From Longimicrobiales bacterium (lineage in GTDB: Bacteria > Gemmatimonadota > Gemmatimonadetes > Longimicrobiales > Gaopeijiaceae), in NCBI GenBank assembly GCA_963422615.1, contig OY730414.1, positions 1,844,302 through 1,908,301 on the forward strand: a stretch of 64,000 nt of DNA, given 5' to 3'. A program made the translations under genes and the position numbers. This document shows, piece by piece, positions 19,601 to 22,053 of this stretch. The notes under the pieces are model-generated. The model saw nothing but the letters and a program-made list of their open reading frames with translations, was not told the origin of the DNA and did not search any database. Within the stretch, counting starts at the first letter, position 1; every line of letters begins with the position of its first letter.

Positions 19601-20143
19601 AAGGCGACGGACAGCGACCCGCCTTCGGTCTTTGTACTTGCCGATCCCGGCCGCCTCTTCAAAGAGAAACCGGCGCTCGTCCGCCCGCTCGGACAAGATG
19701 GCGTCAATCATGCGAATCTCGATTACCGAGTAGGCGTTGGCGCCCAGCCCCGTATCCCGACACAGGTCTACAATGTCCCGAAGCCGACAGGCGGTGCGGT
19801 TGAGGCGGTAATCACTCCCCCCGTCCCGGTAGACGGTTCGGCCGATCTCAACTTCTTCGAAGGGAACGGGGAGCAGCCCGTCCTCGTTGGACACGACCAT
19901 GGAGACGGACCCCCGATTCACGGGTTTGCGGGAGACCGTCCCCTGGAAGATCACTTCTTCCATCCTCGCACCCCGTACGGCCGAGGGGCGCTGTTCTCCC
20001 AGGACCCAGCGGATCGCGTCGCCGATATTGGACTTTCCGCACCCGTTGGGACCCACGACCGCCGTAATCCCGTCGTGGAACTCCACACGCGTGGGATACG
20101 GAAAAGACTTGAAGCCGTGAACCTGAAGGGACCTCAGCTTCAT
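16643..20143 (-). CDS. smc: chromosome segregation protein SMC
   Basis: GFKSF, GPNGCGKSN, coiled coils, LSGGE, LDEVDAPLD; ATG 20143 overlaps rsfS stop. Confidence 0.97.
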   Translation of the reverse strand: MKLRSLQVHGFKSFPYPTRVEFHDGITAVVGPNGCGKSNIGDAIRWVLGEQRPSAVRGARMEEVIFQGTVSRKPVNRGSVSMVVSNEDGLLPVPFEEVEIGRTVYRDGGSDYRLNRTACRLRDIVDLCRDTGLGANAYSVIEIRMIDAILSERADERRFLFEEAAGIGKYKDRRRVAVRRLKTSEADLRRIEDVIAEVRTKVRSLARQKGKAQRYEKLQSRRIQVEVTLAKNGLEELDARLSRVDGELKSSQADGVGAKARLRVAEADLEQARLVQMEAERARVESASSLDAVGSELYRVEMEVAVAEERITHGKRRLAQISNEQAGLSKFRTRSDDELSSLRDHFAQRLADIEVVRSNLAKYKKSAAEIRKQREVAQGRVRELEVQCRTVTRRIARIEGDRESARIQAEEMGRRLTRLSRVAREGAGAQRDLRSKGDLFSDRRTVLAVGAQEASGALANSRRRLGLLRERLETVRVREKETEPRLTALEAEADALRRLTATGEGAEALAAAACKAFPIQVLGVLSDFVRVAGPPSARIVDAVLGRFGFALVLRSREDAGRIQQWYTETESAAGLVLLPRERAPESRGALPVGVSATGAGAPWVRALLGGLKIGNGLNPASRSSVSTDAEGEVRIDVRGAIHLLPRGAAGGRLERRERIKSLGFACEAARRKLEDVQAARTELEREYGECEEETRAASERLLEARDEARAAEAEATAHSDRQQRLDRHQEEISRQLEGTRAARDRADDREGAAKAALTRLRQEETALATRLERRREDQSASEDKWERAREAESETAIRSARLENEAERLRGRISDLEETVDRTGVRIAELDRETRDLEEELVRLRRIRRDGQAALQQLFSKRDDAKDVLEARKQALQIASEAVTSAERRVGETRSAERAAADRRHELELRRQDIRNQAMRIGERLEAEWNRPLEALIQETEIVKGPPEDLKTELTGIVGRLNRMGPVNMLAVEEHAEESARLEFLSRQREDLVRAGNDLRSAIRRINETATQLFMGSFEAIRENFRRTFRHLFDGGEANLRLADPDRPLESPVEIHAAPGGKRTQRIDLLSGGERALTALSLLFGIYLVKPSPFCILDEVDAPLDESNIGRFIRLLQGFKAQTQFVVITHNPRTIEAADWIYGVTMEEPGVSSIVGVRLEATGPVG

Positions 20144-20526
20144 TCGGAGAGTTTTCCGGAAAACGGATCGGCCGAGGAACCGCCTTTCTCGTTTCCGATG
20201 ACGACGAACGGAGCGTCTCCCCAAAGCTCTTCCAGGCGGTAGAAGCCCCTGACCGCCGGATGGAAGACATGGACGACCCAGTCGACATAATCCAGCAACA
20301 CCCACCGCCCCTGATCCAGGCCTTCCACGTGTTCGGGCCGATCTCCGTCTCGCTTCGCCGAGTCGATGATGTGTTCGGCGACCGCTCGAACCTGGACGTC
20401 CGAACGCCCGGTGGCGATCACGAAGAAGTCGGTGGCCGACGACAGGTTGCGAAGATCCATGACCGTGACGTCCTCGGCTTTTCTGTCCAGGGCGTACCGA
20501 ACGGCTCCCTGAACCTGGGCCGGCAT
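20140..20526 (-). CDS. rsfS: ribosome silencing factor RsfS
   Basis: DRKAEDV, DFFVIATG, WVLLDY.D.VVHVF, FYRLEELW; start approximate. Confidence 0.95.
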   Translation of the reverse strand: MPAQVQGAVRYALDRKAEDVTVMDLRNLSSATDFFVIATGRSDVQVRAVAEHIIDSAKRDGDRPEHVEGLDQGRWVLLDYVDWVVHVFHPAVRGFYRLEELWGDAPFVVIGNEKGGSSADPFSGKLSE

Positions 20527-20573
20527 ACCGAACGCTTCCCGCTCCCCATCCGCGGGTGTGGTTCGGGGACCCG

Positions 20574-21029
20574 TCAAATCGCCTCGGCCTTGACGACCAC
20601 CCTCACCTCGACCTCGACCTCCGCAGCCAGGCGAATGGGAATCCGGTACTCGCCCACCTCCTTGATCGGTTCGCCGAGAACAACGGACTTCCTGTCCAAC
20701 TCGAAGTCGATGCCCGATTCCTGGGCGCACTCCCCGATTTCGCGCCGGGTGACGGACCCGAACAGCCGCCCCTCTTCGTTGGCGAAGGCCGTGATGGTGA
20801 ATGTCTTGCCTTCCAGCTGGGACGCCCGTCGGTTGCCCTCCAGGTGCTCCTTGCGCAACCTCTCGCCCCGGTGGCGCTGCTCTTCCTCAATTCTCTGGAC
20901 ACTGGATGGAGAAGCCACGTAGGCCAGGCCTCGGGGAATCAGGTAGTTGCGGGCGTAGCCGGGCTTCACGTTCACTAGCCCACCCACGGGGCCCAGTTTG
21001 TCGACCGCTTCACGCAGAATCAGCTTCAT
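20574..21029 (-). CDS. rplI: 50S ribosomal protein bL9
   Basis: MKLIL..V..LG..G..VNVKPGYARNYLIP; LFGSVT. Confidence 0.97.
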   Translation of the reverse strand: MKLILREAVDKLGPVGGLVNVKPGYARNYLIPRGLAYVASPSSVQRIEEEQRHRGERLRKEHLEGNRRASQLEGKTFTITAFANEEGRLFGSVTRREIGECAQESGIDFELDRKSVVLGEPIKEVGEYRIPIRLAAEVEVEVRVVVKAEAI

Positions 21030-21054
21030 CGGTTCTTTCCGTCCAGCCTGGACC

Positions 21055-21705
21055 TCAGGCCAAGTGATCCTTGGTATAGGGGAGCAGAGCCAGGTATCTG
21101 GCCCGCTTGATTGCCGTGCCAAGTCGACGCTGAAAGCGGGCCGTGACTTTCGTGGTCCGCTTCGGCAGAATTTTCCCTTGCTCGGTGAGAAAGCGGGACA
21201 GCGTCGCGACGTCCTTGTAGTTCAACAGGACGACCGGAGGCCCCTCGAAGCGTCGGCGGCGACCCCGAACCCCCGAATACACCGGTGGGGCCGACACCAC
21301 GACCGGTTTCGCTTCCTCGTCTCGGTCCTGAGATTCCCGCACCTCGCCCCGGTCCGGGGTTTCCTCTCTTTCCGGATTCGAAGAAACCACCGGTCGTTCT
21401 GCAAAGACGGAGGCGCCCGATGTAGGCTGGCCATGGTTGAGCACGACCAGGTACCGCATGGTCTCCTCGTCAAGCTTGAGCAGTCGTTCGAATTCGGGAA
21501 GGGCCGAGGGCTCGGCGGAGACATGGGCAACGACAAAGTAGCCGATCTCCGCCTTGTTGACGGGGTACACAAGGCGGCGGACGCCCCAGTGGTCTACCGT
21601 GGTGACTTCGCCGCCAAGCCGAGCGTGGAAGGTGTCCAACTTGGCATTGACGGCGTCCAGGTCCAAGGCGGCGTCCAGGATGTAGACGATCTCGTATGCT
21701 GTCAT
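21055..21705 (-). CDS. rpsF-rpsR: fused 30S ribosomal proteins bS6-bS18 (216 aa)
   Basis: N-terminal YEIVYILD...[10 protein letters not shown]...MRYLVV (bS6) in frame with [23 protein letters not shown]...[13 protein letters not shown] (bS18); no stop between. Confidence 0.92.
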
Positions 21706-22053
21706 GCAGGCTTGTTCGCTCTCATTCGGGGGAAGCGACGGAATCCGCGTCTCATGTCGAATTCTTACCGATGACGAAGTATAGTACAGGCCAACTCCAA
21801 GGTGGAAGAACCCGTCTGACTCCGTCCCTTCCCGGCTCCACCCCGGGGCAGCCCGGACTCCGCCGGCGCCGAACCCGAAGGGTCCAGCTCCGTTTCCTGT
21901 CGCCGGCAAGAACGCTTTCTCAAACGTGCATCCGGTGGCCGGGGGCGAGAAGCGCCGCTGGAATGCCCGCCACAAAACAAGCATCTTGATTCTGGCGGAG
22001 AAAGCCTACCTTTTGTACCTTCGCCAACTACTGGAACGAAAGAGCGCACCTAC

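Follow-up and report, generated by a model that had tools for sequence, protein, structure and literature searches.

In bacterial ribosomes, the small-subunit proteins bS6 and bS18 must pair before they can bind 16S rRNA, the heterodimer joining the central-domain junction once S15 is in place. In Escherichia coli both proteins carry end modifications, with glutamate being added to S6 and S18 being acetylated, and bS18 occurs more widely as both zinc-binding (C+) and zinc-free (C-) forms. The phylum of the Bacteroidia belongs to the same broad FCB group as Gemmatimonadota, the phylum considered here. Passages of a study of Bacteroidia ribosomes (PMC7797042) describe a pocket formed by bS21, bS18 and bS6 that sequesters the anti-Shine-Dalgarno (anti-SD) sequence and, in Flavobacterium, residues of the bS6 C-terminal helix that touch the last 16S nucleotides. 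Zinc-free paralogues are mentioned in PMC6094098, and according to part of a further report the E. coli rpsF leader forms an mRNA structure that is bound by the S6:S18 complex, repressing the translation of rpsF (PMC4647458).

The canonical heterodimer is assembled from separate rpsF and rpsR products, whereas at the locus examined here, which lies within a window of 64,000 nucleotides (the whole stretch of DNA analysed) from a Longimicrobiales bacterium, both proteins are encoded as one polypeptide. The C-terminus of S6 and the N-terminus of S18 are consequently not free in this chain, such that end modifications of the E. coli type cannot occur in the same way. The fused rpsF-rpsR ORF occupies positions 21055..21705 of the minus strand, running from an ATG at 21705 to a TGA at 21055-21057 (216 codons plus stop). 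A preliminary description of this DNA had proposed a single 216-codon ORF with bS6 at about 21430-21705 (residues 1-92), a linker of approximately 63 residues and a bS18 core at 21055-21240, and our domain calls agree with this layout. The bS6 domain (Pfam Ribosomal_S6, PF01250) covers residues 4-88 (21442..21696, minus strand), scoring 73.8 bits against a curated cut-off of 27 and matching profile positions 2-89 of 90. It is followed on the same strand by a conserved C-terminal extension of bS6 (residues 89-110, 21376..21441), recognised by its invariant columns; by a variable, mostly acidic linker section (residues 111-137, 21295..21375), predicted to be disordered on account of its low pLDDT; by a conserved, family-specific motif region preceding the S18 core (residues 138-157, 21235..21294); and by the bS18 core itself (residues 158-216, 21058..21234), within which Pfam Ribosomal_S18 (PF01084) matches residues 161-208 (21082-21225) at 73.7 bits, the cut-off being 21 bits.

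Methionine is found only at residues 1 and 83 of the translation and cysteine is absent altogether, so that two further elements of the preliminary description stand, namely a linker-to-bS18 region containing neither a stop nor an ATG, and a bS18 devoid of zinc cysteines. The N-terminus is shared with relatives, which begin at the same Met with the pattern M-R-x-Y-E-[IV]-V-Y. Given that the Met encoded at 21705 is common to relatives, a longer ORF of 309 amino acids starting from an ATG at 21984 was rejected as the gene.

The fused gene is followed by rplI, and then by rsfS and smc, and the usual order rpsF, rpsR, rplI is thus retained. The rplI gene (bL9; 20577..21029, minus strand), which encodes Ribosomal_L9_N and Ribosomal_L9_C domains, starts 25 nt past the stop of the fused gene. 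No ssb gene intervenes between the S6 and S18 parts, as had been remarked earlier; the two ssb genes of this genome lie far from the operon, and a bS21 gene is also present elsewhere. As a side observation, the rsfS ORF as listed (20143-20730, minus strand) has a GTG start that overlaps rplI by about 150 nt, and its RsfS domain begins at residue 76, the true start probably being an internal Met. Profile searches of the whole genome, a single contig of 2.57 Mb that is 98% complete, yielded one Ribosomal_S6 and one Ribosomal_S18 match, both of which fall within the fused ORF. As no other S6 is present in a genome that is 98% complete, the fused chain must serve, if the ribosome has S6 at all.

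Structure prediction with AF2, using an alignment of 85 rows that includes divergent fusions, gave a mean pLDDT of 85.5 and a pTM of 0.77, superseding an earlier and poor run based on 74 close relatives (mean pLDDT 54.5, pTM 0.41). Local pLDDT is approximately 97 in S6 and 91-97 in the S18 core, with intermediate values in the bS6 extension (90 for residues 91-100 and 80 for residues 101-110) and low values of 46-58 across residues ~111-150. The predicted S6 part has the strand-helix-strand-strand-helix-strand order of the S6 fold. A pTM of 0.77 was reached despite a disordered stretch of 40 residues, and the model, which represents a single chain without rRNA, therefore implies that the S6 and S18 domains are packed against each other with confidence. 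In a Foldseek search of single solved chains, the best match was the bS6 chain 8cwo_F (target-normalised TM 0.89, rmsd 1.2 over 94 columns), and the S15-S6-S18-rRNA complex 1G1X was also among the matches. A sequence search of the PDB identified 9hig_R as the best bS18 chain (E 2.2e-18, residues 150-214), and among the best 60 of 120 results no PDB sequence was matched by both halves of the query. The likeness to the canonical heterodimer thus comprises matches to both Pfam families and a shared bS6 fold; additionally, the bS18 core shares about 60% identity with bS18 of Gammaproteobacteria in the alignments obtained.

To place the fusion phylogenetically, we considered a first set of 41 relatives and a larger sample of 401 genomes of the phylum Gemmatimonadota (these family and phylum tallies include the unpublished genomes G025, G213, G096, G191 and G429, on which no claim rests). 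Within the source genome's own family (f1), S6 and S18 share one stop-free frame in all 24 genomes of the first set, 22 as single matches and two (G005 and G018) as two-part matches in the same frame. The larger sample contains 69 other genomes of this family, and both domains lie in one open frame in 68 of these: as a single full-length match without stops in 48, as two-part matches that share a frame across longer linkers in 19, and, in G350, over residues 30-214 of a locus that is cut by a contig end. The remaining genome, G389 (93% complete), has no match, and S18 is absent from it by profile search too. Overall, we collected 87 fused loci, corresponding to 83 distinct proteins of 206-345 residues, from separate assemblies that include many closed chromosomes.

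In the families compared with f1, the two genes are separate. The sister families f2 and f3, which belong to the same order, show this in 16 of 16 genomes, and so does the largest other family (f4), where fusion is found in 0 of 61 genomes and S6 and S18 occupy different frames in 61 of 61. More broadly, among the matches listed for other families, all 55 that span both domains carry between one and three stops. Loci of Calditrichota and Caldisericaceae that match across both domains were likewise rejected as fusions, having either one stop or different frames. The preliminary description had envisaged that relatives might show a stop after bS6, and such stops do exist, but only outside the family, where they reflect the ancestral split state; none occurs among the loci of the fused family. 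The fusion is therefore family-wide, and has been retained in essentially the whole of f1.

The preliminary description had also recommended a check for an artefactually lost stop, and an independent contig from another study (X8), belonging to a related strain, provides one: it differs by 31 substitutions over 1001 bases, yet its ORF contains no indel and remains open, with eight amino-acid changes. The same contig has an 8-base insertion at 21049, within the 25-nt spacer before rplI, and a 1-base insertion at 21842, upstream of the gene. A further contig, X1, is identical but may be the very source of this DNA. Among other contigs from other studies, X5 leaves positions 21318-21405 unbridged, and X6 (which we guess to be RNA) consists of three short contigs with the linker unbridged.

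Fusions of this kind are not confined to f1. A scan of a protein library of 1.84 billion representatives returned many proteins that match across both domains, and a search for proteins carrying both Ribosomal_S6 and Ribosomal_S18, as had been suggested at the outset, found both Pfam domains in 38 of the 40 divergent representatives tested (149-266 aa, 25-46% identical to the fused protein in alignment A3). These divergent fusions have the same domain order and architecture as the f1 protein, but their junctions are unrelated, some being almost linkerless, and none carries the motif of the f1 family. Several have N-terminal arms of the form K-K-Y-C-R-F or R-R-K-T-C-P-F, which we take to resemble those of Bacteroidota or Alphaproteobacteria. 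In one library entry (P0218), TPR repeats precede the Ribosomal_S18 domain in place of S6, which could reflect either a chimeric call or another type of fusion. The clusters with both domains retrieved from the ESM Atlas are from Gemmatimonadota only.

Given that the same architecture arose in other bacteria, the fused protein is not a new kind of molecule, and its earlier designation as the best novelty candidate in the window was overstated, since the architecture recurs in other lineages and was already present, unremarked, in public protein databases. Indeed, public records label the fused proteins '30S ribosomal protein S18' or 'S6', with one automatic cluster being named 'Multifunctional fusion protein'. 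A full-text literature search, largely covering journals other than subscription titles, found no published description of an S6-S18 fusion. The f1 family represents a further lineage with a recurrent architecture that has apparently not been described before, its particular twist being that the zinc site was lost and a motif gained. There are also practical implications for annotation, as proteins of 206-345 residues are labelled S18-only or S6-only, and marker-gene pipelines may miscount or misalign them.

A diagnostic feature of the f1 fusion is the organisation of its junction. Residues G92, G97, S99 and A102 of the bS6 extension are invariant in 74 relatives. The variable section that follows ranges from 33 to 175 residues in relatives and is net negative in 72 of 73 (that of the source genome is short, with a net charge of -5). 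Over the fused family the linker is composed of 17% E, 15% A, 15% D and 14% G, and Asp and Glu together make up 36% of the variable section. Residues 140-156 then form the motif PP-x-F/Y-x-G-x-RGRRRR-x-EGP, which is invariant in the 74 relatives at P140, P141, G145, R147, G148, R149-R152, E154, G155 and P156. Its arginine run (GRRRR, residues 148-152) aligns with the basic arm found at the N-terminus of ordinary S18 in sequence alignments to solved chains.

This motif coincides with the loss of a metal site. Split relatives have C-x2-C ... C-x2-H in S18 in 14 of 14 cases, and in the fused protein R151 and E154 occupy the C-x2-C positions, while T188 and F191 occupy those of C-x2-H; moreover, 82 of the 83 fused proteins are free of Cys, only one having any. 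As the zinc-binding Cys/His set of bS18 is not present, the fused protein is of the C- type (the set defines the C+ subtype rather than the family). The f1 S18, with R, E, T and F at the four ligand places, differs from known C- forms in that a known C- bS18 is usually a second, zinc-regulated paralogue, whereas that of f1 is the sole copy and its loss of the site coincides with the fusion to S6. On the evidence of these alignments, the fused state, the missing zinc site and the presence of the motif coincide in the genomes examined.

The split relatives also give an indication of the state from which the fusion arose. Their S6 ends in a poly-D/E tail, and their genes are closely spaced: in f5 and f7 the S18 start lies 0-2 codons past the S6 stop in the same frame, and in the worked examples from f2 and f3 the two genes overlap by 1 nt or are 2 nt apart, S18 being in another frame. 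Both the close coupling of the genes and the acidic end of S6 consequently predate the fusion.

Within the fused family, S6 and S18 are read in one frame at all 87 loci, even though the aligned parts are separated by anything from 132 to 552 nt, and the linker, at 42-184 codons, is always in frame. Over 5699 linker codons there are no stops in frame 0, whereas frame +1 has 10 and frame +2 has 159. The constancy of the frame despite the spread in gap length, together with this disparity in stops, indicates at the level of sequence that the open linker frame is kept by selection. Public protein sets do contain shorter, S6-only or S18-only pieces of the fused family, and these look like contig-end, frameshifted or chimeric calls, as opposed to a free-standing S18 family. 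Examples from public metagenome sets (P0124-P0161) are truncated, frameshifted or chimeric versions that start, for instance, at Met 83 or past the arginine run, and such entries could mislead annotation towards separate S6 or S18 genes.

Sequence comparison and the structural model together argue that f1 carries a genuine, lineage-wide rpsF-rpsR fusion, the 216-residue product of which is probably a single-chain bS6:bS18 heterodimer. The proposal of a natural covalent bS6-bS18 made from one gene is thus upheld by a sole copy, family-wide occurrence, the lack of a conserved internal start, and domains that are co-folded in the model. Under this interpretation, every ribosome that translates S6 would continue into S18, resulting in 1:1 synthesis, and the tethered S6 and S18, being held at high local concentration, would fold onto each other in the manner of the canonical dimer. 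The fused unit would then bind 16S rRNA on the 30S platform, at the central-domain junction that S15 has primed, with the acidic stretch looping out to solvent and the arginine run replacing the usual basic N-terminal arm of S18 on the rRNA. As to its origin, ancestral rpsF and rpsR genes probably abutted or overlapped, with S6 already bearing an acidic tail, and a loss of the stop combined with a frame adjustment would have joined them. A more elaborate version of this scenario is that the tether replaced zinc, in that the link to S6 and the new motif might have taken over from the zinc knuckle the task of holding the basic arm of S18 on the platform beside the 16S 3' end, thereby creating a zinc-independent, self-assembling platform module; we regard this as a rather doubtful possibility. 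If it were correct, the acidic loop could also modulate anti-SD access or act as a built-in assembly chaperone.

The alternative that survives best, although we consider it unlikely, is that the fused chain is a polyprotein precursor, the linker of which is cut (for example at PP-x-F/Y-x-G) to yield an ordinary bS6 that ends in its acidic tail and an ordinary bS18 that starts with its basic arm. The motif is situated exactly where the N-terminus of a free S18 would begin, and is invariant in 74 relatives while the remaining linker is variable. Furthermore, a precedent for the trimming of a ribosomal protein exists in Firmicutes, where the Prp protease trims bL27 after an F-F/A-type motif. However, no Prp peptidase (PF04327) is encoded in the genome and no other protease candidate was identified, and, as the arginine run matches the ordinary basic arm of S18, rRNA binding alone explains its conservation. 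Moreover, near-linkerless fusions elsewhere (P0171, P0179 and P0210, in which the Pfam domains are 2-10 residues apart) could not be cut into normal proteins.

A second and slightly less probable alternative takes up the suggestion of the preliminary description that a charged linker near the platform or anti-SD region could affect initiation; by analogy with Bacteroidia, it holds that the acidic loop or the arginine motif lies near the 16S 3' end and alters the use of Shine-Dalgarno (SD) sequences. The same two proteins at the same platform site are involved in the Bacteroidia anti-SD pocket, and bS21 is present in the source genome too. In Flavobacterium, passages of PMC7797042 place the 16S 3' end in a groove of bS6 and bS18, and a table in PMC10783764 gives a low value (22) for Gemmatimonadetes among anti-SD classes; the retained acidity of the linker (net negative in 72 of 73) would also be in keeping with such a role. 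Against this, the acidic tail and the basic arm pre-exist in split relatives, so the fusion connects charged tails that were there before and adds no charge, and the length of the linker is unconstrained (33-175 residues). Additionally, rpsF of the fused family keeps a strong SD-like GAGGGAG, and so SD pairing is probably in use.

It is very unlikely, in our estimation, that the gene gives two products, with an internal start adding free bS18 beside the read-through fusion. The source genome does have in-frame GTGs in its linker, and the preliminary description had pointed to one near 21297-21300 as an independent bS18 start; yet this GTG is matched in at most one of 80 relatives. No conserved internal start was found, as none of the 60 codons preceding the N-Y-K-D anchor is ATG, GTG or TTG in more than 28% of 80 sequences. 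An ATG directly past the arginine run in 18 of 80 relatives could be read in favour of a second product, but initiation there would give an S18 that is missing its conserved arm. Furthermore, with no stop in S6 the fusion would be made anyway, and surplus S18 would break the 1:1 ratio. Finally, a sequencing or assembly error that removed the rpsF stop, or a decaying pseudogene, has nothing beyond the rarity of the arrangement to commend it, and its probability is negligible given 83 distinct fused proteins from separate assemblies with many closed chromosomes, an unchanged ORF frame in X8 in spite of its 31 substitutions, and the fact that no second copy of either core ribosomal protein is present.

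Relatives, both fused and split, possess a structured element directly upstream of rpsF, which has a 7-bp stem with compensatory changes in four pairs; on its 3' side lies an SD-like sequence, GAGGGAG or AGGAGG. We built a covariance model of this leader (R1) from 43 sequences, and it recovers 12 of 12 f1 loci that had been held out, at E up to 8e-5, along with 3 of 4 f4 loci and the Gemmatimonadota locus L079, in each case at the expected place. A match in a Caldithrix abyssi record (L087, 2920-3003), directly upstream of rpsF (E 0.01), hints by its presence in Calditrichota that the leader element is older than the phylum. The 5' intergenic region of the fused gene (21706..22053, minus strand) contains a TATACT-like box common to relatives and is without their structured leader, there being no R1 match in 21706-22053 at E up to 10; from this comparison, the leader seems to have been lost in the source genome.

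It has been noted above that the S6:S18 complex of E. coli represses rpsF through a leader structure. The SD of that leader is thought to lie within the structure, as an SD-like sequence lies at the 3' side of the stem in relatives, and the element in relatives may correspond to the S6:S18-responsive leader of E. coli. It differs from the latter in that the fused family has an extra hairpin, and in that the source genome is without a detectable leader. This extra small hairpin (L021-L085) consists of C-C-G-U, a loop and A/G-C-G-G, approximately 45-15 nt upstream of the start, and the alignment places it in the fused family and not in split families. No Rfam ribosomal leader for rpsF was detected in the source locus, in the loci of 14 relatives or in one leader searched alone at E up to 10, and Rfam matches to lncRNA, miRNA and L2-leader models were dismissed as chance. 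Separately, a locus from a sister family (L106 201-279, G039) has a long, near-perfect inverted repeat about 120 nt upstream of rpsF; its matches to plant microRNA models have weak scores and are surely due to chance.

The wider relevance of a genuine rpsF-rpsR fusion derives from the position of bS6 and bS18 as the textbook example of a pair that must associate before binding rRNA. Over 50 genera were sampled in the fused lineage, and in these bacteria the pair has been hard-wired for a long time. The lineage is thus a natural experiment on the order of ribosome assembly, and provides a test of the need for a free S6 C-terminus and a free S18 N-terminus. It also bears on whether S18 can do without its zinc knuckle when tethered to its partner.
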